Shown: in pieces, positions 467 through 50,341 of the stretch | How the letters are laid out: every line of letters starts with the position of its first letter | Position numbering within the stretch: position 1 is the stretch's first letter | Virus record (IMG/VR): IMGVR_UViG_3300029911_000006 | DNA from: a virus | Taxonomy: Duplodnaviria > Heunggongvirae > Uroviricota > Caudoviricetes | Strand: one strand, 5' to 3' | Length of the DNA: 64,000 nt | Program-made: the position numbers and the translations under genes | Notes under the pieces: model-generated | Told to the model about the DNA's origin: nothing | Databases searched by the model: none | The model's input: only the letters and a program-made list of their open reading frames with translations

Positions 467-843
467 TGGGTAGCCTCACACCTTAGAATTTCCATCTCGA
501 TTTCATCGTACGGATTATCTATCGGGATGTTGTTGAACGTGGCGTAGACGTAACGACCATGCAGTAGCTTGTCCCGGTACTGTTTGAACGTGCGGTTGCG
601 GTGGTGCATCGTGTTCTGGTTCAGGAAGGCGAGGATACGTTGCAACCTGTCAACCTCAACAGACAACGTATCCGCCTTCCTGATACGCAGAACACGTACC
701 TTAGACCGCTGGCACCACAACTCCGACTCGAAGATGCACAGCACATCGAAGTAACGCACGTCCTCGTCTGCGTTGGGGTTATGTTCGCGATGCCATGCGA
801 ACCACCCCTCTACGTCGCCAGACTGAGGGTACTTATCGGCCAT
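463..843 (-). CDS. hypothetical protein (126 aa)
   Basis: ORF coupled on both sides (11-nt overlap with the cca stop, ATGA with the next gene). Confidence 0.55.
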   Translation of the reverse strand: MADKYPQSGDVEGWFAWHREHNPNADEDVRYFDVLCIFESELWCQRSKVRVLRIRKADTLSVEVDRLQRILAFLNQNTMHHRNRTFKQYRDKLLHGRYVYATFNNIPIDNPYDEIEMEILRCEATQ

Positions 844-2131
844 TCGTCAACTCCATGTCCGACATCGCGAACCCTCGTGCGAAGTCCAATGCTTCCTGCC
901 GTGAATCGAAGCGTCTCTCGTCAAAGTTCCCGTTCAACTGCTCCGTCTCCACAGCGAACAAGACCCGAGTGAACATCGGCCCCGGCTTGAAGCCCATGTC
1001 CATCAAATCCTGTCCCATGACCATCGGCACCGGGCGGACAGTTTCCGGCGTCAATGCCCGGAAGCGTTCAACCAGAACCGCACGTGCCATCGTCTCACGC
1101 AAGTCCAAGCCGCCTCTGTCCCTACCCTGAGTCATGTTCACAGTCTGCTCGAACAGGTCAACCCCATGCGACAGGACACCCGGCTTACGAGCGAACCGCT
1201 TGACGGTGGCGTCATCTGCGTTGAGAACTCTATCCAGCTTCTCAGCCACAGCGTTGACGACAACATCCCGCTCTCCTACCGACAGCTTCAGGCTGTTGAC
1301 AGCCATCGCCATTTGCAGGTCACTGGAACAATCGGCAAAGAACATCGCCAGACCCAGCAACGGGTCTTTGGTCGGGAACTTGGTGAACCGCTCCAGCATC
1401 GAAGCGAAGTTCAGAGAGGACGTGAAGCCCAGTCCGAATACCTGAGTCAACAACCCAGTAGAAGCCAAGAGAGTCAGACCCTGAACCGCGAACGGCCCAA
1501 CGACCAGCTTCTTCAGTTCAGCCGCAACTCGCTCCATGCTAACCATCCGTACCCGGCTGTCATTTCGCACTATCGCGTCGAACGTACCTTGCTCCACAGT
1601 GAAGCCCAACCGGGCGACGAAGGAAGCCGCACGCAACATGCGTGCCGGGTCTTCCATGAAACGGTCATCCGGGTTGCCTATGCAGCGAACCAAACCGGCT
1701 CTCAGGTCTGACAAACCGCCAACGTGGTCAACCACGAAGTTGGACGGGTCGCCAGCGGGGCCAAACGGTATCAGGGACATCAGCCCGTTCATGGTGAAAT
1801 CGCGGCGAAGAACATCCTCTTCAGCCGACTCGCTGTAGCGAACTTCGTCCGGGCGGCGTCCATCGGTGTACTCGCCATCTGCACGGTACGTCGCAACCTC
1901 TATCTGGTGACCGTCCACTATGACCACGACGACGCCGAACTTGGCACCGACTGGAGTGGTTTTCTCAAACAGAGGCTGAACCTGCTCCGGGCGTGCGTTG
2001 GTCGAAACGTCGAAGTCCTTGGGGGTTTTTCCCAACACTAAATCTCGTACACAACCCCCCACGAGGTTTCCCTCATACCCTGCTCTACGTAAGGTATTCA
2101 ACACTATACTGGCTGCGGCACTCATATCCAT
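833..2131 (-). CDS. cca: CCA-adding tRNA nucleotidyltransferase / poly(A) polymerase-family head domain
   Basis: Motifs GGCVRD...DFD and RRDFTMN are typical of the class II CCA-adding enzyme head domain. Start ATG (MDMSAAAS) lies 6 nt after a TATACT -10 box, so it is leaderless. Confidence 0.85.
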   Translation of the reverse strand: MDMSAAASIVLNTLRRAGYEGNLVGGCVRDLVLGKTPKDFDVSTNARPEQVQPLFEKTTPVGAKFGVVVVIVDGHQIEVATYRADGEYTDGRRPDEVRYSESAEEDVLRRDFTMNGLMSLIPFGPAGDPSNFVVDHVGGLSDLRAGLVRCIGNPDDRFMEDPARMLRAASFVARLGFTVEQGTFDAIVRNDSRVRMVSMERVAAELKKLVVGPFAVQGLTLLASTGLLTQVFGLGFTSSLNFASMLERFTKFPTKDPLLGLAMFFADCSSDLQMAMAVNSLKLSVGERDVVVNAVAEKLDRVLNADDATVKRFARKPGVLSHGVDLFEQTVNMTQGRDRGGLDLRETMARAVLVERFRALTPETVRPVPMVMGQDLMDMGFKPGPMFTRVLFAVETEQLNGNFDERRFDSRQEALDFARGFAMSDMELTNGR

Positions 2132-4394: not shown

Positions 4395-4658
4395 TTAGTT
4401 GTGGTAGTACGAGTCGTGGTACGGTTGGTGGGTTGCTGTACCGGGGAACCCTTTGTCACCACGAATGAACGCCGAGGCCAGTACGGCCAGAATCATGACA
4501 ATGGACACGACGATGAGAAGTTCGATGAGCGTGAAACCCGACTCTTTCTTCAGAGGGCACACACAGTTCTTCGCACCGGGGCGTTCGAGGCGAAGCGGTA
4601 GTTTGCAGTCGGGACAAACCTGCAATAGAACTTGAGCTACTCCCAGTCCTAGATACAT
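4395..4658 (-). CDS. prepilin-like protein carrying a class III (type IV pilin) signal motif G|FTLIELLIVVSIVMILAVLA
   Basis: The canonical prepilin peptidase cleavage/methylation motif KKESG-FTLIEL lies in mid-ORF. The annotated 41-aa leader holds a CPDC...CVCP zinc ribbon. The predicted mature part is only about 46 aa. Alternative internal GTG or CTG starts would give a typical short MKKxxG leader. Confidence 0.5.
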   Translation of the reverse strand: MYLGLGVAQVLLQVCPDCKLPLRLERPGAKNCVCPLKKESGFTLIELLIVVSIVMILAVLASAFIRGDKGFPGTATHQPYHDSYYHN

Positions 4659-4882
4659 TAGAGACTCCCTCCCCGCATGAAGCGGATAGTACGATAAGCA
4701 TACCAGCCGAATCCGAAGATGCCCAGCAGCAGTCCCCCGAAGAAGGCCGTGTTCATAGGTACCAGCGGGTAGAGCATAATGAGCAGCCAGATGAGCATCA
4801 GCGCGGGTCCTCCGGTGGCCGCTAGGACAATGAAACAGAGAATCTTCACGTGAAGTGGAGCCGTCTTGTATTCAAGGCTCAT
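4658..4882 (-). CDS. small membrane protein (74 aa, 2-3 TM helices)
   Basis: MSLEYKTAPLHVKILCFIVLAATGG... ATGA overlaps at both ends. Confidence 0.5.
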   Translation of the reverse strand: MSLEYKTAPLHVKILCFIVLAATGGPALMLIWLLIMLYPLVPMNTAFFGGLLLGIFGFGWYAYRTIRFMRGGSL

Positions 4883-5097
4883 AGTGTACCTGCATCTTCC
4901 GCTTGAAGCAGGGTGTTGAACATCGCAGCGATGTGCCGTGCGTTGTTGCGGGTCTTGGTGGCCCGGACAACAGCGAGGGGTAAACGGTTCGCGTCTTCGA
5001 GCACGACGCACCAGTGACCAAGTATCCGGTCAGGCTTGAACGACGGAGGCTTCGGCTTGGTTTTTGCGACCCTCTTGACGACCGGCTTACTCTTCAT
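4879..5097 (-). CDS. small basic protein (72 aa, K/P-rich N-terminus)
   Basis: MKSKPVVKRVAKTKPKPP... The start lies inside the tail of the upstream gene (11-nt overlap). Confidence 0.45.
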   Translation of the reverse strand: MKSKPVVKRVAKTKPKPPSFKPDRILGHWCVVLEDANRLPLAVVRATKTRNNARHIAAMFNTLLQAEDAGTL

Positions 5098-5332
5098 TGA
5101 ATTCCTCGCGATTGCCCATGGCGTACTGCACGAAACCTTGTGCCGCACGCATCTGAGCCTGAGCGTGGAGCACGCCTTCATGGAAGCCCTTGTTGTAACC
5201 GTCGCTGTGCCCCATGTTGTACTGGCACTGCTGCAACAGGTCGCTGGTGTGCTTCTGGTCTGCCATCATACTGGTGAGGACAGCAGCGAGTACGGGGCGA
5301 ACCTCGCCGGGGATTACGATGTCTTTAGCCAT
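5087..5332 (-). CDS. hypothetical protein (81 aa)
   Basis: TAATG coupling to the upstream gene. Confidence 0.5.
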   Translation of the reverse strand: MAKDIVIPGEVRPVLAAVLTSMMADQKHTSDLLQQCQYNMGHSDGYNKGFHEGVLHAQAQMRAAQGFVQYAMGNREEFNEE

Positions 5333-5523
5333 TATCTCAACCTCTCTTCAGCCCACAAGGCAAAGTACGTGATGCTGGCAATGTCGGGGATGTTGAAGCC
5401 CTCTTGGAAGCACACGTAGAAGGGAATCTCCAGCTTCGGTGTGCCGACGATGGCACGGACATAGCGGGTCTTCCCGTCTGTGCATTTGTACACACCATCG
5501 ACAACAATGTCTTGGACGTTCAT
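5332..5523 (-). CDS. hypothetical protein (63 aa)
   Basis: GGAGAACTAATG Shine-Dalgarno. TAATG coupling. Confidence 0.5.
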   Translation of the reverse strand: MNVQDIVVDGVYKCTDGKTRYVRAIVGTPKLEIPFYVCFQEGFNIPDIASITYFALWAEERLR

Positions 5524-5900
5524 TAGTTCTCCCGTGACGCCGCGATGACCGCCGTGAACAGCAACTCCATCTCAGGCTTGAGGAGTTGAGCGGAGAGCAA
5601 CCTACGCATCCGGCTCAGAACCTCTTGCTGGTGACGACGGTTCGGTGTGCCCTTCGGTAAGGACGGAAGGGCGTCGATGACCTGCTGCTTTGTTGGAACC
5701 ACAGACTTCTGCGTTAGCAGGGTCACCATGGAGGCGATGCCGGTAGCTGACCCGGAGGTCTTCAGGCCATCCTTGACGTACTCGAAGTCACCAATCGCTG
5801 TGCGGATTACGCGGATGTTGGCAAGGTGACACACTCCGCCGATGCTCGTATCAAGAAGCAGGGCGTGGTATCCAGCGGCGATAGCGTCTAGGTTATCCAT
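5523..5900 (-). CDS. hypothetical protein (125 aa) immediately downstream of PARP
   Basis: AGGAGACCC-ATG lies 8 nt after the PARP stop. The track ORF extends further upstream through low-complexity sequence. Confidence 0.55.
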   Translation of the reverse strand: MDNLDAIAAGYHALLLDTSIGGVCHLANIRVIRTAIGDFEYVKDGLKTSGSATGIASMVTLLTQKSVVPTKQQVIDALPSLPKGTPNRRHQQEVLSRMRRLLSAQLLKPEMELLFTAVIAASREN

Positions 5901-5907
5901 GGGTCTC

Positions 5908-7398
5908 CTACTTGCTGTCGAACTCGATGAGGTACTTGATGTTGGACTGCGAGGTACGGTAGACAATCTGCTCGTCGTTCTGGACGCCAGAGACACCAGC
6001 CTTCGCCCAGCAAGAGTCGAAGCCATTCTGACGGCAGTACGAAGCTGCACGGCTGTCGCCATGACCACGGGGAGTGTACGGCTTGCCCATGGCAACGTCG
6101 GCCCGGAACATGTAGCAGTTGCTGTCCCGGCTGCTGCTCCCACCACCCCAGTAGCCGAAGCTGTAGTTCAGCGACTTCGTGCTCTGGTTGGAGAAGTACA
6201 CACCGTTGTCGTACATCGCACCAGTGGTCTGTGCGGTCGAAAGCTGCGTCGGAAGTACGAAGCCACGCTTCAGGATGGAGAGGATGTTGAACACGCGGGT
6301 ACCGTGCCAGAGTTCGCGGATGTTGCCAACCTTCTTACCATCGGCGTCGAAGGCGGAAATCATGTGAGGAATCGTGACCGCGTACACCCGGACAGGCTTC
6401 AGGTGAGAGCAGGAGTGACCCCGGTTGACGGTGGCATAGAACTCAGACTCGATGCTCTTCCAGATGTCCTTGTCGTCCACCAGAGCAAGCTTGCACTCGA
6501 ACAGTGCCTTGCGTGCGATGACAACCTCATCCTTATCGCCACCCTTGGCAGCATCGGCGAGACGCTGTTCGGCGAGTTGCACCGAAGTCTCAAGCTGGTC
6601 AAGCAGCGAAGTCTGAGCGGCGATGTTGATGAAATCGGTGTGCCATCCCTGACGGCGAGTGCCTACGTCCTGCGGCACGAGGCGGAGGTACGTGGAGAGA
6701 AGACCACCACCCGCAGCGTACTTGGCGTTCTCGGTGTCACGCTTCTGCACGTAGGGGAGCATCTTGTCGAGAATCGACCGGGCTTCCGTGATGGCTTCAA
6801 GCTGAACTACGCCGAGAGAGGTCTTCACGAGACCAGAGTCATCAATGTAGACGCCACCCTTATCCTTACCACCAGTCGCCAGATTCAACTCATGACGGTT
6901 GGTGTCGGCCAGCTTCTTCACGAGAGCGGCAGTGAAGGCACATGCACCAGCAATGTCGGTCACCGCTGCTGCCTTGACGGCGACAGAGGTCATTTTGTTG
7001 TCGTAGGAAGAAGAGGAACCAAATGCTTTGGCGGCTGGCTCAGGGGCACCGACAGTCTTGACTTCGGTGTAGGCTGGCTTGATTTTGCCATCCTTGTCAG
7101 CCTTCTGCGGCTTGAGGTTGCCGTACTTGTCGGTCTGTGTCTTGTCGCGAATCTTCGCGTCGAGGTCGGACTGGCTGTCGAGCAACATGCTCTCGCACTT
7201 CTCGATGGGTGCTCCGACCCGGCCCCAAGTGGTGCGGATGTAACCCGTCTCCACCTTGCCGCCACGGCCCGACTGGGTGATTGGCCCGTCGTAAATCTCT
7301 ACCCGGTAGAACTTGTTGTTGTTCTGAATCGGGTCAACGGCGATAAACATCCTCGTCGCGATTACTTTAGTGGTCGTAGCTGTCAGTAGCGTTGCCAT
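5908..7398 (-). CDS. poly(ADP-ribose) polymerase (PARP) homolog with a WGR domain
   Basis: WGR motif FYRVEIYDG...TTWGRVG. Catalytic motifs LWHGTRVFNILSIL (H-G-T), GVYFSNQSTKSLNYS (Tyr) and NIKYLIEFD (Glu) align with the PARP1 H-Y-E signature. The start is leaderless, after promoter copy 4. Confidence 0.85.
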   Translation of the reverse strand: MATLLTATTTKVIATRMFIAVDPIQNNNKFYRVEIYDGPITQSGRGGKVETGYIRTTWGRVGAPIEKCESMLLDSQSDLDAKIRDKTQTDKYGNLKPQKADKDGKIKPAYTEVKTVGAPEPAAKAFGSSSSYDNKMTSVAVKAAAVTDIAGACAFTAALVKKLADTNRHELNLATGGKDKGGVYIDDSGLVKTSLGVVQLEAITEARSILDKMLPYVQKRDTENAKYAAGGGLLSTYLRLVPQDVGTRRQGWHTDFINIAAQTSLLDQLETSVQLAEQRLADAAKGGDKDEVVIARKALFECKLALVDDKDIWKSIESEFYATVNRGHSCSHLKPVRVYAVTIPHMISAFDADGKKVGNIRELWHGTRVFNILSILKRGFVLPTQLSTAQTTGAMYDNGVYFSNQSTKSLNYSFGYWGGGSSSRDSNCYMFRADVAMGKPYTPRGHGDSRAASYCRQNGFDSCWAKAGVSGVQNDEQIVYRTSQSNIKYLIEFDSK

Positions 7399-7399
7399 G

Positions 7400-7460
7400 C
7401 ATGTAGTATACAGAGCTATGGGGTGTTTTGAACAGCTATTTTTGAGAAATTTTTGTGTTT
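7400..7460 (-). promoter_or_regulatory. conserved phage promoter, copy 4 (drives PARP; leaderless)
   Basis: Minus strand reads AAAAATTTCTCAAAAATAGCTGTTCAAAACACCCCATAGCTCTGTATACTACATGCATG. Confidence 0.65.
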
Positions 7461-7672
7461 TCAGGGTACTGACGGAGTATCTCTCGCTGGCGGATTGCCT
7501 CTGTCTGGTTACCCTGACGTTCCTCCACCAGCCGAATGAGTTCATCGGCATGTGCCGTGCATACTTCGCCATCTACGATGCTCAGCTTCGCGTCGTTATC
7601 AGCGGCGACCTGTTTGATAATGTCCACATCGAGGAAGTTGTGCTCAGCCACGTACTCTAACCTATGCCACAT
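7436..7672 (-). CDS. hypothetical protein (78 aa)
   Basis: Track ORF. GGAGACAACA Shine-Dalgarno. It overlaps promoter copy 4. Confidence 0.5.
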   Translation of the reverse strand: MWHRLEYVAEHNFLDVDIIKQVAADNDAKLSIVDGEVCTAHADELIRLVEERQGNQTEAIRQREILRQYPENTKISQK

Positions 7673-7727
7673 TGTTGTCTCCGTATGCTACTAAGGTGTT
7701 CCTGTATTTTACACCATCCTGAGTATA

Positions 7728-7760
7728 CACGCGAGGTAGCAAAGGGTTCTGAGTGTAGTC
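7728..7760 (-). promoter_or_regulatory. conserved promoter, degenerate copy (CTCAGAACC...GTGTATACTCAGG) with a 50-nt leader
   Basis: Motif similarity. It sits upstream of 7436..7672. Confidence 0.4.
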
Positions 7761-7772
7761 ATGTGTCCCATG

Positions 7773-8093
7773 TCAGTCCCAGTAAGGTGTGCCAGTTACG
7801 GTAGGCGTGATGCCGTTGGCCCGGTCGATGTACTCGCGGTAGTAATCGGACGCTGAGGGGATGCTGATGCTGCTGTGCCCGGTGAGACCCAGCTTATAGT
7901 TCATGAGGCCCAGCCGGGAGTTGATGGCGGAGTCGTCCCCGGCCAGCTTCTTGTAGTCGGAGGGCAGGAGGTCGATGTGGAGCCAGCCCCACGCGGTACC
8001 CCGGCCACCAGTCACGCTGAACTTCAGGCCACGCTTTTTGAGGGCGGCTTTGATTTGGGCGAGGGCTTCATTGCGGTCGATGGATTGGCTCAT
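7773..8093 (-). CDS. hypothetical protein (106 aa)
   Basis: Track ORF. ATGA coupling. Confidence 0.55.
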   Translation of the reverse strand: MSQSIDRNEALAQIKAALKKRGLKFSVTGGRGTAWGWLHIDLLPSDYKKLAGDDSAINSRLGLMNYKLGLTGHSSISIPSASDYYREYIDRANGITPTVTGTPYWD

Positions 8094-8335
8094 ACTCGTG
8101 TCTTCCTTCCTGTGATGACGTTGACCAGCGTGGTGCCGGGGGCGAAGTTCGCACGCATCTCGAACATCTCTTCGGCGGAAGGCTTGACGTTCCGCATCTT
8201 GCGGCGGTAGTCGGCACAGACCTTGTTGGTCTGCTCCGTCCGCTTCGCTTCGGTCGCTTTGAAGTTGAAGCTGGGAACTTGGTCGATGAAGTATTCCTTG
8301 ATGGTGTCAGCCGGGGGAACCGCATCGTTGGTCAA
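8090..8335 (-). CDS. hypothetical protein (81 aa) with an apparent TTG start
   Basis: Protein-like frame with no in-frame ATG. An in-frame TAA lies 17 codons upstream. It follows a variant promoter motif. Confidence 0.35.
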   Translation of the reverse strand: MTNDAVPPADTIKEYFIDQVPSFNFKATEAKRTEQTNKVCADYRRKMRNVKPSAEEMFEMRANFAPGTTLVNVITGRKTRV

Positions 8336-8392
8336 CCAGTGAGGGACACCAGCCTCCAGCCCCGAACAACTATTTTTAGAAAATTTTTACCC
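8336..8392 (-). promoter_or_regulatory. promoter-motif variant (UP element and GTTGTTCGGGG box present, no TATACT)
   Basis: Minus strand reads AAAAATTTTCTAAAAATAGTTGTTCGGGGCTGGAGG... Confidence 0.3.
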
Positions 8393-8401
8393 CTGTGTTT
8401 T

Positions 8402-8731
8402 CTAGTAGGTGTAGTCGGATGCGTCGTATTTGAACGCCATTTTCTTGACGGCGGCAGCAGTGAGTTGGTTGATGAGCGGGTTGTGCCACTTGTCGCCGAT
8501 GGGGACGTGGATGAGTTGGAGAGGGCTGGTGGTCAGGATGACGTAGAGGGCGTGGCCGTCTCCCATGGGGAGGGCGACCTGAAGACCCTTGTGAGTGCCG
8601 GAGCCCTTCGTCTTGGCGTACTCAACAATCTTGCCGACGTACTCGCCTTCCTTCGCCATCCAATCCTTGCTGGTGTAGTCGGACTCGAAGTTCCCGATTT
8701 CATCTGGTACTTTGAACGCACGGTTAGCCAT
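8402..8731 (-). CDS. hypothetical protein (109 aa)
   Basis: MANRAFKVPDE... AGGAG Shine-Dalgarno. AATGGCTAA overlap with the upstream small ORF. Confidence 0.55.
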   Translation of the reverse strand: MANRAFKVPDEIGNFESDYTSKDWMAKEGEYVGKIVEYAKTKGSGTHKGLQVALPMGDGHALYVILTTSPLQLIHVPIGDKWHNPLINQLTAAAVKKMAFKYDASDYTY

Positions 8732-8912
8732 TGGGATACTCCTGTGGGAAAAGGGACGAGGGGTTGATGTAGACGGTGCAGTGAGGGTGTCGGGCCTCGT
8801 TGGCTTTGAGTTCCATCCACTCCAATGCTGCTTCGACGTTGGCATCTTTCCGATTGGGGGACGGTCTGAAGGTCAAGGTGACCGTAAAACGTATGAAATT
8901 GAACCCGGACAC
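8724..8912 (-). CDS. possible small protein (GTG start)
   Basis: Track ORF. It is coupled to the downstream gene. Weak support. Confidence 0.25.
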   Translation of the reverse strand: MSGFNFIRFTVTLTFRPSPNRKDANVEAALEWMELKANEARHPHCTVYINPSSLFPQEYPNG

Positions 8913-8945
8913 GGCTGAAGCAGCCAGCGTTCATTGCGACCGCAA

Positions 8946-9284
8946 TCAAGTCAAAAGGATTCGAGGCTGTCGAGGGTGTATTGAAGGGACTTCACAGTAC
9001 CCCGCTTTCTTGAGCAACGCCGTGAGTTCGCTGGGGTTGACATAGACGTACCCATCAATGGACTGAAGCGTAAGCAGCATCTTCGCCATCTCAGCAGAGG
9101 CAGCGAACAGCTTTGCATTGGCCTCACGGGTGGGACGGTCAACGTCCACCGCGTACCCGATGGTGAACTCGTTCTCGGGGCCGGGGTCGTCGGAGTATAT
9201 GCGGGTGGCGTTCATGGGAGACAGGTCGTGTTGGAACCCGTAAGGGAATGGTTCTGTCTGCCAGTTGCCGGGTGTGTGTGGCAT
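8946..9284 (-). CDS. hypothetical protein (112 aa)
   Basis: CAGGAGAACTC-ATG Shine-Dalgarno. Downstream of promoter copy 5. Confidence 0.55.
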   Translation of the reverse strand: MPHTPGNWQTEPFPYGFQHDLSPMNATRIYSDDPGPENEFTIGYAVDVDRPTREANAKLFAASAEMAKMLLTLQSIDGYVYVNPSELTALLKKAGYCEVPSIHPRQPRILLT

Positions 9285-9339
9285 GAGTTCTCCTGTGTCG
9301 TTTGTCTCTTTGATTGCCGCTTCTCCAGACCAACCTCAC

Positions 9340-9398
9340 ATCGTTAGTATACCGGAGCCCACACGATTCTGAACAACTAATTTGGAATATTTATACCA
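9340..9398 (-). promoter_or_regulatory. conserved phage promoter, copy 5
   Basis: Minus strand reads AAATATTCCAAATTAGTTGTTCAGAATCGTGTGGGCTCCGGTATACTAACG. Confidence 0.65.
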
Positions 9399-9682
9399 GA
9401 TGCACTTCGCACATGAGTGATGGCAGTGGGGAGATTCTTCGCCTTTGCCTTGACATACGCAGTCTGCGGAATCTCATTCCACATGCCGAACTTCCACACG
9501 AAGAACTGGGGGACAGGGAGCATGTGGAATTTCTTGTAGTGGTTCAGAGCGTGGAGAGGGTGCCGCAGCCTCATCCGGCAGTTGAGGCACTGCTGGTGCT
9601 CCTTGAAGAAGGCGTAGTAGGTGTCTGGAAATCTAACATCGTTCCAGCGAGACTCATTCCAAAGTGTTAGCTGGGTTGCCAT
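9377..9682 (-). CDS. small protein with a C2H2-like zinc-finger motif (C-x2-C-x12-H-x4-H)
   Basis: CLNCRMRLRHPLHALNHYKKFH. Leaderless ATG 6 nt after TATACT (MATQLTLW). Confidence 0.5.
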   Translation of the reverse strand: MATQLTLWNESRWNDVRFPDTYYAFFKEHQQCLNCRMRLRHPLHALNHYKKFHMLPVPQFFVWKFGMWNEIPQTAYVKAKAKNLPTAITHVRSASGINIPN

Positions 9683-9750
9683 ACCCCTAGTATACGGACG
9701 GTTACACACTTCTGCACAACAATTTGTGCAACAAATTGTGGAAAACAGGG
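9683..9750 (-). promoter_or_regulatory. conserved phage promoter, copy 6 (leaderless)
   Basis: Minus strand reads ...TTGTTGTGCAGAAGTGTGTAACCGTCCGTATACTAGGGGTATG. Confidence 0.6.
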
Positions 9751-9765
9751 GCCTAGTGGGTACCC

Positions 9766-10080
9766 CTATCTTTTATCGTTTTGTTTGGACTTGGCAGCGG
9801 TCATCATGTTGGCGATGTCCGAGAACGTCGCTGTGCCCTTGTTGATGCCGTAAGGCAACGCGATGAGACCGATGAGAGCGGTGATGAGCATGGGCATGTT
9901 TGCCAGCCATACAGATACCTGCATAGGGTCTGTTAGTGTATAGATGTGACGGAAGCATCCCCAAATCAGGTGCATAGAGAAGGCTGAGAATACAAACATA
10001 AGCACACGTGTGGACGACGGTGTGCCATCGGGCTCAGAGACAAGCGCGTGGAGCCAGCCTAGAATCCTCTGGATAAACAT
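9766..10080 (-). CDS. membrane protein (104 aa)
   Basis: Hydrophobic. GGAGGG Shine-Dalgarno. Confidence 0.55.
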   Translation of the reverse strand: MFIQRILGWLHALVSEPDGTPSSTRVLMFVFSAFSMHLIWGCFRHIYTLTDPMQVSVWLANMPMLITALIGLIALPYGINKGTATFSDIANMMTAAKSKQNDKR

Positions 10081-13619: not shown

Positions 13620-14645
13620 TCAACTACACGCGGGTATTTTCAATCCATTGAACCTTACGGGTTGGCTCATCCAGTGTTCGTCGGTTTGTACATGACCCTT
13701 CCGAACCCACTTAGCCATGAGGGTGGGGAACTCCTTCAAGGTGAAGCTCCTCGTGGGTCGAAACACGAGACCCTCCTGCCGTTCGAAGTTTAGAGTAGAA
13801 GCAAGGTCGTCCACCAATCCATCCTTCCACAATCCTCGATACAGAACGGGGACGGTAGGTAGGTTCAACAGCCCAGCGTACTCAGCCGTATCATCCCATG
13901 ATAGACACTTATGCCCCTCCCAAATATTGAAGATGAAGAAGTAAGAAGATAAGTCAAAGTATTCGATGGAGTGTATGGCTGTGACGTTCTCCCCGATAAC
14001 ACGAAACCCAAGGGGGATGTCGTTGGCAACCTGAGCCCAAATTGCTTTTATGAACGTCCGAGAAGGATGGGGACTGAATTCCAGTGACCTAGCATGGATG
14101 AAGTCCCTCGCCATGGTCGTACCCTCTCCATCCATCTTCTCGGTTACTACCACTTCTAACCCGTCCCATTGGTCAGTGGACGTGTGCATCCGGTCGTCAT
14201 TGCTAAGTCCGGGGGAGGAGGGCCAGTGGAAGGTTTTTGGGTACTTGTACTTATCCGTGAAGAGGTACAGGTGGTTCTTTAGGGCTCGTTGGACTCCTTC
14301 TTCGAAGAAGAGTTCCCCCATGAAACGCTGTCCGTTTGGAAGGACAGGGTTGCCCCACTTGTCGTAGGCTCCCTCTTCTTCGAGATGCGGAGGGTACACT
14401 GGTCGAGTGATTCCGGCGTCGAGGCGTAGAGTATCACAGTCGAGTCCAGTGGACTCGGCGTCAAGGTGACATCCTCCACACAAGGTGACCCCGTTAGAAA
14501 GGTAATATCCGCCATCAGGAAATAGTCTCCGTTCGAGAATGTGATGAGCGTCCACACCCGGCTGGCCGCAGTGGACACACGTATGCTTGTCTCTGGCGAA
14601 GACCTCTTCGCGGAAGTCGTCTCGGGTTAGAAGTACAGGTGTCAT
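13620..14645 (-). CDS. HNH nuclease domain fused to an ATP-dependent RNA ligase-like nucleotidyltransferase
   Basis: N-terminus: HTCVHCGQ...DAHHILERR...NGVTLCGGCH (HNH). C-terminus: TEKMDGEGT (motif I KxDG), FRVIGEN (III), EGLVFR (IV), AKWVRK (V). Size fits the Rnl family. Confidence 0.55.
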   Translation of the reverse strand: MTPVLLTRDDFREEVFARDKHTCVHCGQPGVDAHHILERRLFPDGGYYLSNGVTLCGGCHLDAESTGLDCDTLRLDAGITRPVYPPHLEEEGAYDKWGNPVLPNGQRFMGELFFEEGVQRALKNHLYLFTDKYKYPKTFHWPSSPGLSNDDRMHTSTDQWDGLEVVVTEKMDGEGTTMARDFIHARSLEFSPHPSRTFIKAIWAQVANDIPLGFRVIGENVTAIHSIEYFDLSSYFFIFNIWEGHKCLSWDDTAEYAGLLNLPTVPVLYRGLWKDGLVDDLASTLNFERQEGLVFRPTRSFTLKEFPTLMAKWVRKGHVQTDEHWMSQPVRFNGLKIPACS

Positions 14646-19677: not shown

Positions 19678-20037
19678 TCAAGTTGAATGATTCCGATGGA
19701 CTTGCCTATGTCCATGGGAATGTGTTCGACTGTGACTTCCACTTGGTCGCCCCACCAGAGCCGGTCGCTCCGGGTCTTCAGCTTCAGGCCGTGGGACTTC
19801 AACAGCCGGTTCAATTTCGGGAGCATAGTGTGGTCGAATAAACCGAAGGCTGCTTTTGGGTTCCGTTGTTTCACTTTGGCACCGCTCTTTCATGTAGTCG
19901 TGTGCGAAACTCCAGACTGCCTCTGGTAAGTGTTCCGCCGTGATGTGTTCGTCCACTTCAATCGCGTTGATGAACAGGCCTTCCTCGCAACAGGAACAGT
20001 ACACAGGGAACTCCAACTCTTCTAGTGGGCCGCTCAT
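19678..20037 (-). CDS. hypothetical protein; its 3' third may shift into the overlapping frame (19635..19826)
   Basis: The N-terminal two-thirds are protein-like. The C-terminus in this frame is low-complexity, whereas the overlapping frame is protein-like. Confidence 0.4.
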   Translation of the reverse strand: MSGPLEELEFPVYCSCCEEGLFINAIEVDEHITAEHLPEAVWSFAHDYMKERCQSETTEPKSSLRFIRPHYAPEIEPAVEVPRPEAEDPERPALVGRPSGSHSRTHSHGHRQVHRNHST

Positions 20038-20843
20038 TTGGTAGCCCAGTTCTTGTTGATGTAAGGTTCGAGTTGCGACAGATGGCAGTCAGCCGCACGC
20101 TTGTCATTGCGAAGGTGCAGGAGTGTAGGCTGAACGATGTGGCGTTCCTGAGTCGCATAGAGGAAGCGGACTTCGATGACCTGACCCGGAGCCGGGTTGA
20201 ACTTGTTCCGCAGAGAGCAACCAGAGATGCGGTGGACTTGACCCTTCGAGTTCACCATGCCAATCTCAACGCTATCCTTGCCCTCAGGGCTGGGGCCGAT
20301 GACGAACGCATCCGCCATCTTCCAGAACTTCAATTTAAAATGTTGCTCAGCCCTACCAGTACGATAGGACTTCCGTAGATTCTTCGAGACGATGCCCTCG
20401 CCCTTCGCGGCCAGTACCTGCTCCCACAGGGCTTTCTTCTCCGCAGCGGTACGGGCAGTCTTGACCGTGATGAGGTTCTTGGAGTGGTTGTCGAACTCCT
20501 GATGGTACCGGGCTTCACGGTACTCGTAAACGTCGTTGGTGATAACCTCATCGCCAAGGATGAGAGCATCGAAGACGAAGAACGTGGTCTTGACCAGTTC
20601 GCCGTCGATTACGAATGTGTCGAGGGGGTGGGACAGAAGGGCGTGGCGAACCTGAATGGGGAGGGCCTTGCTTGACTTCTCGCCCTCACGGTTGAACCAG
20701 AAAAGCTGACCGTCCTGCTTGGCAATCATCAGCCGATGACCGTTGTGCTTCTCCTGATACCCGTAGTCCGGGTTGGTCAGCATCCGCTGGAAATGAAGCT
20801 CGGTCGTCTCGGTGAGAAGTTCGGCTTGGATACCCTGCATCAT
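20034..20843 (-). CDS. ATP-dependent DNA ligase-like nucleotidyltransferase (269 aa)
   Basis: Motif I EKHNGHR (KxNGxR variant), FVIDGELV (III), EGIVSK (IV), LKFWK (V). Leaderless start after promoter copy 7. Confidence 0.6.
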   Translation of the reverse strand: MMQGIQAELLTETTELHFQRMLTNPDYGYQEKHNGHRLMIAKQDGQLFWFNREGEKSSKALPIQVRHALLSHPLDTFVIDGELVKTTFFVFDALILGDEVITNDVYEYREARYHQEFDNHSKNLITVKTARTAAEKKALWEQVLAAKGEGIVSKNLRKSYRTGRAEQHFKLKFWKMADAFVIGPSPEGKDSVEIGMVNSKGQVHRISGCSLRNKFNPAPGQVIEVRFLYATQERHIVQPTLLHLRNDKRAADCHLSQLEPYINKNWATK

Positions 20844-22619: not shown

Positions 22620-23150
22620 TTAGTTGCCGTCGCCCAAGGAGAGAGTCTGGTCGAGGGTGATTGTCGGAGTCGTGGTTGCGACACCAGCCGCTCCGGCGAC
22701 AGCCATTGCGCTGTAGGTGCCCCAATACTTGCGGTCGAGGCCAGCAGCAGTGGTCGGGGTGAGGAAGTCCGCCCATGCGGTGTCGAAGAAGCAGTTGTCC
22801 GGGGCCTCTTGGAACATGGGGGCGACCTGTGCATCCTGCCAGCCAGCGAGGCCAGTGCCGATGCGGGAGACCTTGAATTCGAGGGTGGGGTTCATCTTGG
22901 CGAAGAGAATGAAGCAGTAGATGTAGAAGCGGAGGGCCTCAGGCGTAATCTGGAACCCCGGCTGACCTGTGGATTTCGAGCAGGTTGGGATGGCGAAGCT
23001 GTTGCCCTGATGGCCGAAGCCAACGTGCCAACGTGCTCCAAAGTTCTTGTGGGCATCACGGGCGGCTCCGCCACCGTGCTCACCCATCTCGTTGCTGCCA
23101 AATGCGAGGATAACTTCAGCCAGATTGCGGAACGCTGTGAGCGTAATCAT
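22620..23150 (-). CDS. macro-domain / PARG-like (GGG-motif) ADP-ribose-processing protein
   Basis: VILAFGSNEMGEHGGGAARDA parallels the macro-domain NAAN-x4-GGGV-A signature and the LNFAS..PGGG signature of microbial PARG; the QEE of PARG is not evident. About 176 aa, which is macro-domain size. Confidence 0.4.
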   Translation of the reverse strand: MITLTAFRNLAEVILAFGSNEMGEHGGGAARDAHKNFGARWHVGFGHQGNSFAIPTCSKSTGQPGFQITPEALRFYIYCFILFAKMNPTLEFKVSRIGTGLAGWQDAQVAPMFQEAPDNCFFDTAWADFLTPTTAAGLDRKYWGTYSAMAVAGAAGVATTTPTITLDQTLSLGDGN

Positions 23151-36778: not shown

Positions 36779-37735
36779 TTACGCCGCTACAGCCTTGGCC
36801 TTCTTCGCCTTGACGGCGACGGGCTGGTTGAGCGAAGCCTGAAGCATCGCCATGACATCGACCGGGGAGGTAACAGCCGGGGCCGGAAGTGCGACCGGAG
36901 CCGGGGTGCGTCCCATAATCTTGTCGTTGATGAGGCCCTTGAAGGAGCGAGTGAAGGAATCCTCGTAGTCGGTTGCGTCGAAGTCACCCGAGAGCATGTC
37001 GATGAGCATTGCGGCCAGTTCGACCTTCTTGTCATCCACAGCGACCGTCTGCCACTTGTCGCAGGAGCGGACTTCGTTGTCGAAGTACATGTAGTGAACG
37101 ACCATGCCGTTCGTGCCGTAGGGACGGATGACGACGGTCTGCTCACGACCACGCTGTGCGGTCTGAGCGATGGCTACGACGCCACGGCCAACCATGGCTG
37201 CACGGAGGGTGCTGAACGTCTCTTCGAAGCCTTTGTCGGGAACGAGGTACTCAGCATCCGCGAAGTAGATGGGGTCGATGGAAGTCATCTTGACGAACTT
37301 CTCCACGGTCATGCGCTTGTCTGAGATAACAGAGCAGCCCTTCTTCTCGTCATCGCTGATGATGGCGAACTCGCCCTTGGCGTACTGGTAGCCCTTGAGG
37401 ATGTTGGTGCCTTCAACGGTCTCGTTGCAGGTCGGGCAGGACATACCTGCACGCTTCAACTGAGTGTAGATGGGCGTCATACCCGTCTTGTCCGAGTTGC
37501 AGTGATGTACCTGATTGAGTTCCACCTTCTCTTCCTCGGTGGCCTTCAGGGTCTTGACGGTGAGATTGACCAGCCCGAAGCCAAGGACGCCAGTCCACGT
37601 TGCACGGTTGGCGATACCCTTCTCGGCGGGGGCGGTGCTAATCTGCGGCTTGGCTGAGGCAGCGGGTGCCACCAGAGCAGCAGAGAGGGAGGCGATGGAG
37701 GCGGGGGCGGTAGGAGTGGTAATCTTCTTTGCCAT
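36779..37735 (-). CDS. ku: Ku protein (bacterial NHEJ DNA-end-binding protein) homolog
   Basis: N-terminal RATWTGVLGFGLVNLTVKTLKA matches the bacterial Ku motif. QVHH...C...CPTC aligns with the Cys-containing segment of some bacterial Ku proteins. Leaderless start after promoter copy 12. Confidence 0.8.
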   Translation of the reverse strand: MAKKITTPTAPASIASLSAALVAPAASAKPQISTAPAEKGIANRATWTGVLGFGLVNLTVKTLKATEEEKVELNQVHHCNSDKTGMTPIYTQLKRAGMSCPTCNETVEGTNILKGYQYAKGEFAIISDDEKKGCSVISDKRMTVEKFVKMTSIDPIYFADAEYLVPDKGFEETFSTLRAAMVGRGVVAIAQTAQRGREQTVVIRPYGTNGMVVHYMYFDNEVRSCDKWQTVAVDDKKVELAAMLIDMLSGDFDATDYEDSFTRSFKGLINDKIMGRTPAPVALPAPAVTSPVDVMAMLQASLNQPVAVKAKKAKAVAA

Positions 37736-37930: not shown

Positions 37931-39208
37931 TTAGTAATCGTCGTCTTCGTCGTCATCATCCAACTCCGAGTCATCTTCATCCTCGTAGTCGTCGTCCGAG
38001 TCATCGAACTCGTCATCGTACTCGTCGTCATCTTCCACGTCCGAGTCGTCAACAGCGTAGTAGCCGTTATCCAGCGGGAAGTTGTATCCCCGGAGGGTAG
38101 CGATAGCCATGAGAATCTTGTCGATGGTCTCCTGCTCAGGGTGCAGGGCACGCTCAGCGTTGTAGACCTCAGAGAGCTTCATGTCAGCAGCCTTGGCAAC
38201 TTCCCCCAAGGTCTTGCCAGCAGCCTCACGGTGGAAGCGGAGAGGGTTCGCGAACAACTTGGACTGTGCCGGGGCAATGTCCATCCGCGAGAAGCGACGG
38301 AGCCAGTTCTTGAGACGAGCGACCGATGCCTTCTTGAAGCTGGCGGAAGTCATCTTGCCACGCTTCAGGAGACGCTTGACGCTCGGCAGGGCCTTGACCT
38401 GCTTGATGAGTTCCTGACGGTCACCCGAGAGTTCCACGACAGGCTGCATCATGACCGGAGTGTCGGTGCGACCTTCAATCATCTCGTTGTACTCGACCTC
38501 ACGCAGAACCTCGTAACGCCACGTGCGACCCTTGGAGTAGCCGTAGTCCACCGGGATGGCAACAACGTCAGCCGGGTTGACCTTGACTTCCACAATGCGG
38601 CTCCCACCTTCACGCCACGCACTGCCGAAGTTGGGCAGGTACGCCTTAGAGCAGAAGTGGAGACCACGGGAGCACTCGCGACGACGGTCAGGGTCAACAG
38701 CCTTGCGTGGCATAACCACTGGGGGACGGCCCGGACGGTTGTCGAAGCGACCCGTGCGGATGTCCATGAAGTTGTTCCGAACCTTCTTGTAGGCGAGGAA
38801 GCAGCCGTCGTCGGTCAGGGCGAAGCGACCATTGCTCAGCCACTCGTAGACCTCGTTGACGGTATCCGCATCCGGGTTCAGGTACAGATTGTCCATGAAG
38901 CGGAGTAGGTGGGCGACAGGCTTGCCGTGCTCGATGAGTTCGAGAACCTTGGTCGTCAGCACGTTCTCAACCTTCTGACCCTTGTAGGTCACGCCGTCAG
39001 CAGTGACGTTGACCTTACCGTGCGAACGCTCGGCAATCTGAGTCGCCAGCGAGAGCAGCTTCGGTACTCGCGAGAAGTTCTCACGCGACAGTGCCTTGTG
39101 CAGAGCCTTGAATGTTGGTTGACCCTTGCTCACAGGGTAGCTACGGCCACCGACTACCACGGATAGGTAATCGTTCTGGAGCACGTATGGAATCGCTTGG
39201 CTAGGCAT
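37931..39208 (-). CDS. rIIB-like protein (putative) with a long acidic C-terminal tail
   Basis: It lies immediately downstream of the rIIA-like gene and is coupled to it (T4 rIIA-rIIB order). GAGGAG Shine-Dalgarno. Confidence 0.4.
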   Translation of the reverse strand: MPSQAIPYVLQNDYLSVVVGGRSYPVSKGQPTFKALHKALSRENFSRVPKLLSLATQIAERSHGKVNVTADGVTYKGQKVENVLTTKVLELIEHGKPVAHLLRFMDNLYLNPDADTVNEVYEWLSNGRFALTDDGCFLAYKKVRNNFMDIRTGRFDNRPGRPPVVMPRKAVDPDRRRECSRGLHFCSKAYLPNFGSAWREGGSRIVEVKVNPADVVAIPVDYGYSKGRTWRYEVLREVEYNEMIEGRTDTPVMMQPVVELSGDRQELIKQVKALPSVKRLLKRGKMTSASFKKASVARLKNWLRRFSRMDIAPAQSKLFANPLRFHREAAGKTLGEVAKAADMKLSEVYNAERALHPEQETIDKILMAIATLRGYNFPLDNGYYAVDDSDVEDDDEYDDEFDDSDDDYEDEDDSELDDDDEDDDY

Positions 39209-41705: not shown

Positions 41706-41719
41706 TGGGTGTCTTCTCT

Positions 41720-41785
41720 CCTGCACACAGTATACGGGATACTCCCACATTCTGAACATATATTTTGGAAAAATTTGCCTACAGT
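41720..41785 (-). promoter_or_regulatory. conserved phage promoter, copy 13 (drives rIIA)
   Basis: Minus strand reads AAATTTTTCCAAAATATATGTTCAGAATGTGGGAGTATCCCGTATACTGTGTGCAGGAGAG. Confidence 0.65.
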
Positions 41786-42030
41786 GTATAGAACAACTTA
41801 CGTCGGTTTTCCACATGCCGCTTGATGACGTGGGCCAGCAACAAATTGTACCCAGTACGAGCTATGAGAGCACTCATACCGCAGTAAATGGGCATCATCC
41901 ATGGGATGTTGTGGTTGAGCAGACGGGCCGCTATCAACACTAAGGTGCCGGGTACACTGGCGAGGAACCAGCCGTAGTAGAACCCGAGTTGCAATGCTTC
42001 AAACCGGCTTACTCTAATTTTCCCTTGCAT
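41779..42030 (-). CDS. small membrane protein (83 aa)
   Basis: Hydrophobic track ORF. Confidence 0.5.
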   Translation of the reverse strand: MQGKIRVSRFEALQLGFYYGWFLASVPGTLVLIAARLLNHNIPWMMPIYCGMSALIARTGYNLLLAHVIKRHVENRRKLFYTL

Positions 42031-47875: not shown

Positions 47876-48433
47876 TTACCAAATCAGGTTATGCAGATTG
47901 AGGTACTTGGCGGGAACCGTGTCAGTCAGCCACACGCCATTAGGGGCAAGATAGAAGGATAAACCCTCTTCATGCATTGCGGCTGCATCGACAGGTACCA
48001 CTATAGGGTTACCATGTCGCGACCCTACTGTCCGTGCGGTGTCACACAGAGCGGAAAGATGGACGTGCTGCCGCTTGCCCTTGAGCAAGCCCTGCTTTTT
48101 GATTGAGTCGAGAAACCGGGTGGCGGTTCCGTGGTAGAGAATGCCGGGAGGGATAACGACCTCGTACTTCAGGTCTACCTCAATACTGTGACCTTGCACG
48201 GCCCGGATAGATTTTCCGTCGTCCGAGAACTGGAACCGCTTCTTGTCGTTGTCTTCCACGACTTCATCGAGTTCCTCGCGATTGATTTTATATCCCTTAC
48301 TCGCCAGACCAGTCAACAGGTTGGATACGGTACACCAACCATCTGAAGTAAGAGTGAGGGAAGCCTCTTCAGGTTTATGCCGGAGTACAAGACTCATGAA
48401 CCTGCTCGTTCGGACTAGGGCTTTGTTATCCAT
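47876..48433 (-). CDS. kptA: RNA 2'-phosphotransferase Tpt1/KptA
   Basis: Near-colinear match to E. coli KptA: SRFMSLVLRHKPE, DKKRFQFSDDGKSIRAVQGHS, LYHGTATRFLDSIKKQGL, HVHLS, NGVWLT. Confidence 0.9.
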   Translation of the reverse strand: MDNKALVRTSRFMSLVLRHKPEEASLTLTSDGWCTVSNLLTGLASKGYKINREELDEVVEDNDKKRFQFSDDGKSIRAVQGHSIEVDLKYEVVIPPGILYHGTATRFLDSIKKQGLLKGKRQHVHLSALCDTARTVGSRHGNPIVVPVDAAAMHEEGLSFYLAPNGVWLTDTVPAKYLNLHNLIW

Positions 48434-49322: not shown

Positions 49323-49409
49323 TGGTGACCCCGGCAGGATTCGAACCTGCGATGTGCTTTCACACGCGAGTTTAGGAAACTCGTGCCTTGTCCGCTAGAC
49401 TACGGGGTC
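49323..49409 (-). tRNA. tRNA with anticodon CCU (Arg) but a 16-nt class-II-type variable arm; A73
   Basis: Hand-folded: acceptor GACCCCG/CGGGGTC, D GTCT/AGGC, anticodon stem CGAGT/ACTCG with loop TTCCTAA, variable CGTGTGAAAGCACATC, T-arm GCAGG-TTCGAAT-CCTGC, CCA encoded. Confidence 0.65.
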
Positions 49410-49425
49410 AAACTTGTATTCTACT

Positions 49426-49680
49426 CTACAACCAATGCTTCAGGTAGTTGTCTGGGAACTTATTCTTGGAGCGAACCTCGGTGATGTCCGCTTCCGGGTC
49501 GCCCAACTTATCCAGAGCTACCAAGTCTTCAGCCAGACCGGCACGGTGACGGCTGTGAATGAACTTCTTCAGCCCTGCGGTGTTGCGGCGTTCGCCCTTC
49601 TTGCCGCAGCAAAAGTCGGCTCCCATCGCTGGGGGAAACTTCTCAGCCTTGAACCCGCGTTGGTGATTCGTCTTGCTCAT
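49426..49680 (-). CDS. hypothetical protein (84 aa)
   Basis: GGAGAGG Shine-Dalgarno. Confidence 0.5.
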   Translation of the reverse strand: MSKTNHQRGFKAEKFPPAMGADFCCGKKGERRNTAGLKKFIHSRHRAGLAEDLVALDKLGDPEADITEVRSKNKFPDNYLKHWL

Positions 49681-50020
49681 CGTCCTCTCCAGCTACTTCC
49701 TTGAGCGTATCCATGAAGTCCACCGGCTTCCAGCCAGCCGCTTCCATAATCTCCGGGAACGTACCGTTCGCCTTCTCCGTGGGAACAACCACCCACTCAC
49801 ATGCACAACCCGGCCACAGGCTGGGGAATATGCCTTGGTTCTCCATCTCCTCGGTCATCTCCACGCCGTCGAGAGCCGCCTGTCGGTCTTGCTTACACGA
49901 TCCACACATCCCAGCGAAGATGTACTCTTCTGCTGCTTCTTGAGACTCAAAGCCGGAGCGGGATGGGTTGGGCTCGTCAGATTCTCGTGCCGGGAGGTAC
50001 AGTGCGGAAAAATCAGGCAT
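49643..50020 (-). CDS. hypothetical acidic protein
   Basis: Track ORF. The start is uncertain. Confidence 0.35.
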   Translation of the reverse strand: MPDFSALYLPARESDEPNPSRSGFESQEAAEEYIFAGMCGSCKQDRQAALDGVEMTEEMENQGIFPSLWPGCACEWVVVPTEKANGTFPEIMEAAGWKPVDFMDTLKEVAGEDDEQDESPTRVQG

Positions 50021-50240
50021 TCGTATCACCAATCAGGTACAGGTTATTGTCGCTCGACCCACAAACTGCGATGCCGTCCAGATACCACTTACACTCTTGA
50101 GACCCGATGGTGCCGACCAGCCGGGGGCACTCTTCAAAATCCACCATGTGAAGGCTCGTTACCCTGCGCCCGTCCATTGTCTCCGCCTCGGTGATCCCTC
50201 GTGTCGGCACTACCACCGTACTTACATCTAGGTTATTCAT
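50013..50240 (-). CDS. hypothetical protein (75 aa from MNNLD)
   Basis: The track ORF was trimmed to avoid the tRNA-like gene. Confidence 0.4.
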   Translation of the reverse strand: MNNLDVSTVVVPTRGITEAETMDGRRVTSLHMVDFEECPRLVGTIGSQECKWYLDGIAVCGSSDNNLYLIGDTNA

Positions 50241-50252
50241 ACTAGCTAATAC

Positions 50253-50335: not shown

Positions 50336-50341
50336 CAAAGG

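Follow-up and report, generated by a model that had tools for sequence, protein, structure and literature searches.

A 64,000-nucleotide stretch of viral DNA (Caudoviricetes; IMG/VR record IMGVR_UViG_3300029911_000006), hereafter the window, carries on its minus strand a gene whose product is predicted to be a true poly(ADP-ribose) polymerase (PARP) of the PARP1/2/3 type. The protein has the minimal 'bacterial' form, in which a WGR domain is followed by a helical domain (HD) and an ADP-ribosyltransferase (ART) domain, and is closest to PARP2 and PARP1. The carrier is an uncultured jumbo phage. We favor, with moderate confidence, the reading that the protein is a break-activated PARP acting at broken nucleic-acid ends, and that the 125-aa gene located behind it is merely the next cistron. 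The gene, its domains, its catalytic codons and its promoter are arranged as follows.

5908..7398, minus strand: PARP coding sequence, 496 aa plus stop, with WGR, helical and ART domains
7114..7365, minus strand: WGR domain, about aa 12–95, containing NNNKFY...TWGRVG, with the WGR motif at aa 58–60
6460..6831, minus strand: helical regulatory domain (PARP_reg/HD), about aa 190–313
5920..6459, minus strand: ADP-ribosyltransferase (PARP catalytic) domain, aa 314–493
6306..6304, 6198..6196 and 5973..5971, minus strand: catalytic codons of His365, Tyr401 and Glu476, from the alignment to PARP1
7405..7432, minus strand: sigma-70-like promoter, with the –35 element TTCAAA at 7432..7427, a 16-nt spacer and the –10 element TATACT at 7410..7405

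The catalytic family PF00644 matches the window protein with E=2.6e-19 (70 bits against a Pfam cut-off of 26.7) and likewise matches all 71 of the relatives that make up the alignment and profile behind our conservation figures, while PHROG 23333 matches the window protein with E=3.9e-48. When the profile of these 71 relatives was compared with PDB sequences, it aligned over nearly its full length with PARP2 (7.8e-32) and with the WGR-CAT portion of PARP1 (2.5e-31), and scored lower against PARP3 (2.4e-26), PARP4 (2.5e-22) and the tankyrases (about 1e-15). A preliminary description of this DNA, made from its letters alone, had called the gene a PARP, and the Pfam and profile searches agree with it in leading to PARP2 and PARP1 and not to a mono-ART or Tpt1-type family. 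The motifs it quoted are all present (LWHGTR at aa 363–368, GVYFSNQSTKSLNYS at aa 399–413 and KYLIEFD at aa 488–494). The protein combines a WGR domain, a helical domain and a catalytic domain with a His-Tyr-Glu (H-Y-E) triad, and is neither a mono-ART toxin nor a Tpt1-type enzyme.

The WGR domain, which that description had placed ahead of the catalytic core, is confirmed at the profile level. In the window protein alone, PF05406 falls under its cut-off of 22 (E=0.0037, 17.8 bits); it is matched by 63 of the 71 relatives, with a best value of 8.3e-13, and a profile of the N-terminal 110 residues matches the PARP3 WGR structure 2eoc at 4.8e-8 and the PARP2 WGR at 9e-4. The residues G59 and R60 of the WGR motif are invariant or nearly so among the relatives. 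Similarly, the helical domain family PF02877 (PARP_reg) is weak on the window protein (0.014) and matches 32 of the 71 relatives (best 3.2e-9), and a phmmer comparison with PDB sequences aligned residues 190–414 without a break to a PARP1 fragment comprising the helical and catalytic domains (E 6.6e-14). The WGR–HD–ART architecture is therefore established by the Pfam matches of the relatives and the profile alignments to PARP structures.

The phmmer alignment also defines the active site. The residues H862, Y896, K903, S904, Y907 and E988 of PARP1 correspond to H365, Y401, K408, S409, Y412 and E476 of the window protein, respectively, and the PARP1 E988 context YNEYIVY aligns with NDEQIVY around E476. 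Among the relatives, the residues H365, Y401, K408 and Y412 never vary, and S409 and E476 are each kept in at least 90%. The H-Y-E triad reported earlier is thus intact (H365, Y401 and E476), but its glutamate had been assigned wrongly, as the Glu of KYLIEFD aligns with KYLLKL of PARP1. The further step from the triad glutamate to polymer elongation is not supported: the triad is no proof of a polymerase, and PARP4, which itself bears H-Y-E, is labeled a mono-ADP-ribosyltransferase in its PDB entries.

The stop codon of the gene is TAG at 5908–5910, and the supported start is ATG 7398, from which the protein opens with MATLLTATTT. The long minus-strand open reading frame (ORF) extends to 7572 (5908..7572), and its first 58 codons overlap, in a different frame, a 78-aa gene (7436..7672). 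A 554-aa reading from ATG 7572 was ruled out, since it clashes with this separately called gene and the relatives open at MAT.... The JGI call for a 100% identical protein, annotated as poly [ADP-ribose] polymerase, starts at the internal Met17 and gives 480 aa; this start is disfavored, as the 72%-identical relative of lineage L003 opens with MATTTT and has a tyrosine at the Met17 position. The choice of ATG 7398 rests on this tyrosine, on the overlap of the 554-aa form with the 78-aa gene, and on the ENA gene calls for identical contigs, in which PARP has 496 aa and the corresponding start.

The –10 element TATACT ends 6 nt before the PARP ATG, with no Shine–Dalgarno sequence between them, and the A-rich stretch AAAAAT lies directly upstream of the promoter, which is the sole sigma-70-type match within 4800..8200. 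With the –10 box only 6 nt ahead of the ATG, the PARP mRNA should begin at the start codon or right beside it. In five related lineages (L003, L004, L005, L006 and L007), PARP is likewise preceded by TATACT-N6-ATG; TAGAAT variants take this place in L008 and L009, and remoter PARP loci have ordinary Shine–Dalgarno leaders. The leaderless promoter named in the preliminary description (TTCAAA-16-TATACT-6-ATG) is borne out, and predicted leaderless expression of PARP is strongly supported by its conservation in the five other lineages.

The window is phage DNA with nearly everything on one strand; it includes genes for Ku, an ATP-dependent ligase and an HNH-RNA ligase, together with rIIA, rIIB and a tRNA array. 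The genes that form the setting of PARP are listed below.

36779..37735, minus strand: Ku-like DNA end-binding protein (Pfam Ku 3.1e-34; phrog_4873 5.3e-37)
20034..20843, minus strand: ATP-dependent DNA ligase (Pfam DNA_ligase_A_M 1.4e-15; phrog_114 1.2e-13)
833..2131, minus strand: CCA-adding/poly(A) polymerase family enzyme, of the RNA-repair set
13620..14645, minus strand: HNH-RNA ligase fusion, of the RNA-repair set, 6 kb upstream of PARP
60361..61347, minus strand: RlaP nucleotidyltransferase, of the RNA-repair set
47876..48433, minus strand: Tpt1/KptA RNA 2'-phosphotransferase, which uses NAD+ (PF01885 8.4e-49, full length)
49323..58408, minus strand: cluster of 17 tRNAs
37931..39208, minus strand: rIIB-like gene (PHROG 609 1.7e-66)
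39201..41816, minus strand: rIIA-like gene (PHROG 612 1.2e-103)

The rIIA- and rIIB-like genes adjoin each other and lie directly upstream of Ku. Several of the tRNAs are unusually long, at 87–91 nt (Arg-CCT, Lys-CTT, Asn-GTT, Arg-ACG and Arg-CCG), and the anticodon loop of one is irregular; they may be intron-containing or atypical, which could connect them with the RNA ligase, Tpt1 and the CCA enzyme in a set for splicing or repairing tRNAs.

The leaderless start is a trait of the promoters of this phage clade and is not specific to the PARP gene. The window contains 16 copies of GTATACT, each on the minus (coding) strand, compared with an expectation of 2.7, and an ATG opening an ORF of 64–496 aa stands at +6 after 8 of the 19 minus-strand TATACT sites (binomial P about 7e-10). 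The extended motif consists of an A-rich stretch, TGTTCAGAA, about 15 nt and then (G)TATACT. Genes of the TATACT-N6-ATG form include PARP, the Ku homolog (TATACT at 37747, 6 nt, ATG 37735), the ATP-dependent DNA ligase (TATACT at 20855, 6 nt, ATG 20843) and the CCA-adding enzyme; further to these two positions, sites of the family have the first T of TATACT (minus strand) at, for example, 2143, 2906, 9694, 27053 and 30461. The variant sites at 41734 (before rIIA) and 3536 have leaders and Shine–Dalgarno sequences, and the variant at 23358, ahead of the operon holding a macro-like gene, has an 8-nt leader. We infer the 'early' timing of the PARP promoter from its sigma-70-like consensus and from the related promoter at rIIA/rIIB. 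One ORF within 27308..63847 matches Pfam Sigma70_r4_2 (4.7e-5), and it is possible that this phage sigma-like factor reads the conserved promoter class. The class provides a handle on the transcription program of an uncultured jumbo-phage clade.

In the mechanism that we favor, the WGR domain would bind a nucleic-acid break, by analogy with human PARP1/2 and the PARPs of Herpetosiphon and C. difficile. Binding would relieve the autoinhibition imposed by the helical domain, as expected from homologs of the same architecture, and the ART domain would then use NAD+ to ADP-ribosylate itself and targets close by, probably in the form of chains, as its homologs do. The gene context suggests, less strongly, that PARP may be made together with the phage Ku, the ATP-dependent DNA ligase and the RNA-repair enzymes under the same promoter class, and that during infection it might tag or handle broken ends of phage or host nucleic acid.

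Several observations weigh against this mechanism. To our knowledge, no phage PARP has been biochemically characterized, and the H-Y-E triad is necessary yet insufficient for chain elongation. No Pfam match to Macro, PARG, ADP-ribosylglycohydrolase (ARH) or NADAR was found in the 117 ORFs of the 64-kb window. A tblastn search of PARP-bearing deposited phages (XacN1, Xoo-sp13, CM1, RAS14 and the Klebsiella phages) found no Ku, and PARP therefore has no general link with end joining in phages; Ku relatives among deposited phages occur almost solely in mycobacteriophages. The shared promoter class may reflect only a common temporal class, and the neighbors of PARP in other subclades, namely Rnl1 RNA ligase, a non-specific endonuclease, MazG-like and Nudix proteins, suggest RNA repair or host takeover at least as much as break sensing.

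The lack of a general co-occurrence of PARP and Ku in deposited phages also speaks for host takeover in the style of T4 Alt/ModA/ModB, in which the enzyme would ADP-ribosylate host RNA polymerase and translation or defense factors early in infection, with the WGR domain merely localizing it. The sigma-70-like promoter fits this role, as do the strand and promoter class held in common with rIIA/rIIB-type genes, and the role was proposed for jumbo-phage PARPs by Iyer et al. 2021 (PMC7824862). However, a WGR domain together with an autoinhibitory helical domain is a break-activated design, unlike the constitutive T4-type ARTs, and the tested enzymes of WGR–HD–ART architecture require DNA for activity (PMC5966428). 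Host takeover remains a serious rival, although we regard it as unlikely.

PARP2/3 and Tpt1 are able to ADP-ribosylate nucleic-acid ends in vitro, and the window protein might similarly mono- or oligo-modify phosphorylated RNA or DNA termini, acting with the RNA ligase, Tpt1, the CCA enzyme and Ku against cuts by host nucleases. The gene neighborhoods lend this some substance, as a CCA-adding enzyme lies 4–5 kb downstream of PARP in four related lineages, the HNH-RNA ligase lies upstream of it in the window, Tpt1 lies 3 kb upstream of it in L004, and an Rnl1-type ligase stands beside PARP in 7 loci of another subclade. However, such neighbors are generic early-region genes of large phages whose co-location is perhaps temporal, and the sequence does not tell protein acceptors from nucleic-acid acceptors; we consider a transferase acting on nucleic-acid ends distinctly improbable.

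Returning to the break-activated PARP, its occurrence with Ku and the ATP-dependent DNA ligase under one leaderless promoter class could be taken further, as a eukaryote-style break-sensing and end-joining module. Such a module would possibly extend to RNA ends via the RNA ligase, Tpt1 and the CCA enzyme, and ADP-ribosylation would mark or cap broken phage ends against host nucleases and recruit repair. This extension is speculative and, in our estimate, rather doubtful. Since the window PARP possesses all activity residues, the minimal architecture and a rich repair context (Ku, DNA ligase, RNA ligase, Tpt1, CCA enzyme and 17 tRNAs), it is a reasonable candidate for probing break-activated ADP-ribosylation in phage infection, and also for work on the relatives that eukaryotic PARP1/2 have among prokaryotes and viruses.

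The preliminary description had joined PARP, Tpt1 and a macro/PARG-like gene into a complete writer/eraser set for ADP-ribose. The third of these genes is the following.

22620..23150, minus strand: 176-aa N4 gp14-like/A1S_2505-family protein with a predicted macrodomain-like fold

This ORF gave no Pfam or PDB sequence match and belongs to phrog_2072 and NCBIfam A1S_2505. An AF2 model computed from a 62-sequence alignment is confident (pLDDT 87.5), and in this model the protein has a macrodomain-like fold, as had been claimed. Its proposed PARG character is not sustained, as neither the PARG signature GGG-X6-8-QEE nor a Pfam Macro or PARG match was found in it. Members of the N4 gp14/A1S_2505 family are present in 383 phage records, most of them N4-like, versus 15 records with PARP, and the gene is located 15 kb from PARP in a separate operon; the protein is not specifically tied to PARP. 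The Tpt1 gene is genuine, with an NCBIfam equivalog match (NF002014, 251 bits against a cut-off of 239) in addition to PF01885, and fits the set of RNA ligase, CCA enzyme, RlaP and 17 tRNAs better than poly(ADP-ribose) (PAR) metabolism. The complete writer/eraser set does not hold, given the missing PARG character of the macro-like protein and the absence from the window ORFs of matches to the four Pfam families named above. A dedicated PAR eraser in the window is not demonstrated.

The three NAD+/ADP-ribose-related folds in the window (PARP, macro-like and Tpt1) could also be combined in another manner, with PARP as an NAD+ consumer or anti-defense device that acts on the NAD+/ADP-ribose pool, for example against NAD+-dependent immunity or signaling, and with the A1S_2505 protein and Tpt1 processing its products. 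Conflicts over NAD+ and ADP-ribose in large phages are stressed in the literature (PMC9503650). NAD+ depletion, however, would hurt the phage itself, Pfam scans of the ORFs revealed no NAD+ salvage genes in the window, and the macro-like family is found chiefly in N4-like phages, all of which make such a device very unlikely.

The genes following PARP in its operon are these.

5523..5900, minus strand: 125-aa ORF, lineage-restricted, whose own stop overlaps the next start (TAATG)
5332..5523, minus strand: 63-aa gene, TAATG-joined to its neighbor
5087..5332, minus strand: 81-aa gene, TAATG-joined to its neighbor

The ATG of the 125-aa ORF begins 8 nt past the PARP stop, and an AGGAG that overlaps this stop (TAGGAG) lies 4 nt ahead of the ATG. 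The Shine–Dalgarno sequence reported previously is thus present, as is the 8-nt distance from stop to ATG, but the sequence overlaps the stop and does not lie 8 nt beyond it. The ORF has no match in Pfam, PHROG or NCBIfam. Only three relatives, namely P0122 (48% identity), P0189 and the C-terminal fragment P0190, emerged when 5.8 billion proteins were searched by word index and 1.8 billion representative proteins were searched in full with HMMER. The ORF was found on at least 24 contigs, with identical copies on contigs of up to about 430 kb. In its conserved N-terminal half, the comparison with the L004 homolog revealed 19 synonymous and 21 non-synonymous codon changes, including a block of 16 identical residues carrying many silent changes. 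This pattern, together with the recurrence on contigs, indicates a real gene under purifying selection. An AF2 model from a two-sequence alignment was unusable (pLDDT 49).

The 125-aa ORF lies directly downstream of PARP in the window and in L004, whereas in the L055/L056 lineage its homolog is located upstream of PARP with a 52-aa gene between them. Its profile found no match within ±3 kb of more than 45 other PARP loci, and the genes just downstream of PARP in L003, L005 and L006 are unrelated to it. The order of the 63-aa and 81-aa genes is also called in L001, L002 and L057–L059. Overlaps of 4 nt between genes are the rule throughout the window, and the tight spacing of PARP and the 125-aa ORF is not special but the norm of a packed operon. 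Missing from most PARP loci and coupled no more tightly than is usual in this operon, the 125-aa protein is not borne out as the coupled partner of PARP that the preliminary description saw in it, and the suggestion that it is a regulator or a substrate is likewise unsupported. That it stays beside PARP in three close lineages hints only weakly at linkage. The gene is the next cistron, a fast-evolving accessory gene and lineage-restricted orphan, and not a conserved partner of PARP. About 0.9 kb downstream of it, on the same strand, an 87-aa ORF (4395..4658, minus strand) carries the type IV pilin-like N-terminal methylation motif GFTLIELLIVV (Pfam N_methyl 2.4e-8), and an ORF of this kind occupies a comparable place downstream of PARP in L004 and L057/L058.

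A conserved partner gene for PARP was also sought by clustering its neighbors, which gave subclade-specific genes only (Rnl1, Endonuclease_NS, MazG-like, Nudix and an unknown protein of 200–230 aa). The 200–230-aa protein, without a Pfam match, occurs near PARP in 10 loci of a different subclade (L018–L020, L026, L028, L030, L031, L046, L047 and L054); in L020 it follows PARP directly (3587–4279), with 17 nt between the PARP match and its start. This protein makes a more plausible conserved partner than the 125-aa ORF.

One further gene of the window recalls a eukaryotic association of PARP.

30698..33283, minus strand: major-vault-protein (MVP)-like ORF, 861 aa (Pfam MVP_shoulder 8.6e-25, Vault_3 1.6e-9)

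PARP might work with this gene product in the manner of vPARP (PARP4) and MVP in the vaults of eukaryotes. The two genes are 23 kb apart, the closest IMG/VR relative (L007/L062) carries both with similar spacing, and the phage MVPs described earlier were without any PARP (a 2023 preprint presents the 'first' phage MVPs, from gut phages, with no PARP). Against such pairing, the 48 PARP and 68 MVP-like contigs of IMG/VR have only 1 in common, many contigs of >300 kb carry one gene without the other, and the huge phages LR756500/501/503 have MVP-like genes and no PARP match. The architecture, moreover, is PARP1/2-like, and PARP4 scores lower. As a general association, MVP-like plus PARP was rejected on the single contig common to the two IMG/VR scans, and for the window itself a vault-like pairing is extremely improbable. 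Single-protein locus scans of IMG/VR for Ku and MVP-like proteins gave no matches, which reflects the limits of the pattern method; MVP-like matches were obtained with the alignment-based scan. Among the ORFs in the second half of the window, two match R2K ATP-grasp families and one matches M24 peptidase.

The search for relatives of the PARP found 602 at E≤1e-5 among 8,000 scored candidates, many of them on contigs of 100–700 kb, and relatives were present on a further 48 IMG/VR viral contigs. Homologs at 28–37% identity occur in 15 of 50,697 deposited phage records, in agreement with the rarity among phages claimed previously, and most are already annotated as PARP; the 15 records comprise XacN1, Xoo-sp13, CM1, RAS14, three Klebsiella phages, the Cellulophaga phi4:1 group and one huge uncultured phage. 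In Megablast comparisons, neither the region nor 15 kb of the window showed DNA similarity to deposited phages; the phage lacks a close cultured relative. In L003/L055 (JGI Ga0642624_00006, a 405-kb contig; locus 4939..9978), the PARP region is present twice close to the end of the contig. The two copies are identical over 450 aa, and only one is found in the sister contig L056 (328 kb); the duplication is probably an assembly artifact or a terminal repeat, and not a real gene duplication.

Our comparison with known systems reveals likeness to T4 Alt/ModA/ModB in general kind, as these are phage-encoded, NAD+-dependent modifiers of the ART fold used for host takeover (PMC9503650). They differ in belonging to the R-S-E ART clade, in having neither WGR nor helical domain and in not being break-activated, and no sequence match to them was seen. 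Phage PARPs themselves have been documented: Aeromonas phage Aeh1 and Cellulophaga phi4:1 were listed as carriers by Perina et al. 2014 (PMC4245714), a few jumbo phages with PARPs were noted by Iyer et al. 2021 (PMC7824862), and gut jumbo phages carry PARP1-like genes (PMC11662467). The PARPs of Xanthomonas phages XacN1/Xoo-sp13, Stenotrophomonas phages CM1/RAS14 and Klebsiella phages FBKp34/05F01/KP13-16 are homologous to the window protein over 96–99% of the length. These PARPs and that of Cellulophaga phi4:1 (PHROG 23333) already bear the annotation 'poly (ADP-ribose) polymerase', have only 28–35% identity to the window protein, and come from phage lineages other than that of the window, in none of which tblastn found a Ku homolog.

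Among cellular enzymes, the window PARP shares the WGR-(PARP_reg)-PARP_cat arrangement, without zinc fingers or BRCT, with the bacterial HaPARP (Herpetosiphon aurantiacus) and CdPARP (Clostridioides difficile), which are of comparable size (about 430–500 aa), keep the H-Y-E triad, and synthesize PAR in vitro in a DNA-dependent manner (PMC4245714, PMC5966428). Metagenomic relatives at about 39–40% identity include NCBI entries named 'WGR domain-containing protein' and 'PARP catalytic domain protein'. Unlike the bacterial PARPs, the window PARP is phage-encoded, is preceded by a leaderless phage promoter and has no DUF2263-type PARG found near it, and its clade carries 13–16 inserted residues within WGR (PITQSGRGGKVETGYI) and, between WGR and HD, a longer linker of low complexity. 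Human PARP2 and PARP1 are its best solved-structure matches over the whole length, with equivalent NAD+-site residues, although it has neither the zinc fingers and BRCT of PARP1 nor the N-terminal tail of PARP2, identity in the helical-domain and ART regions is low, and PARP1 Tyr986 is replaced by Asn474. The window PARP is a new, divergent member of a kind already published and annotated. It extends the known picture without altering it, since such genes were already documented, and its main added value lies in the conserved leaderless promoter class common to Ku and DNA ligase and in an unusually complete repair-gene context.

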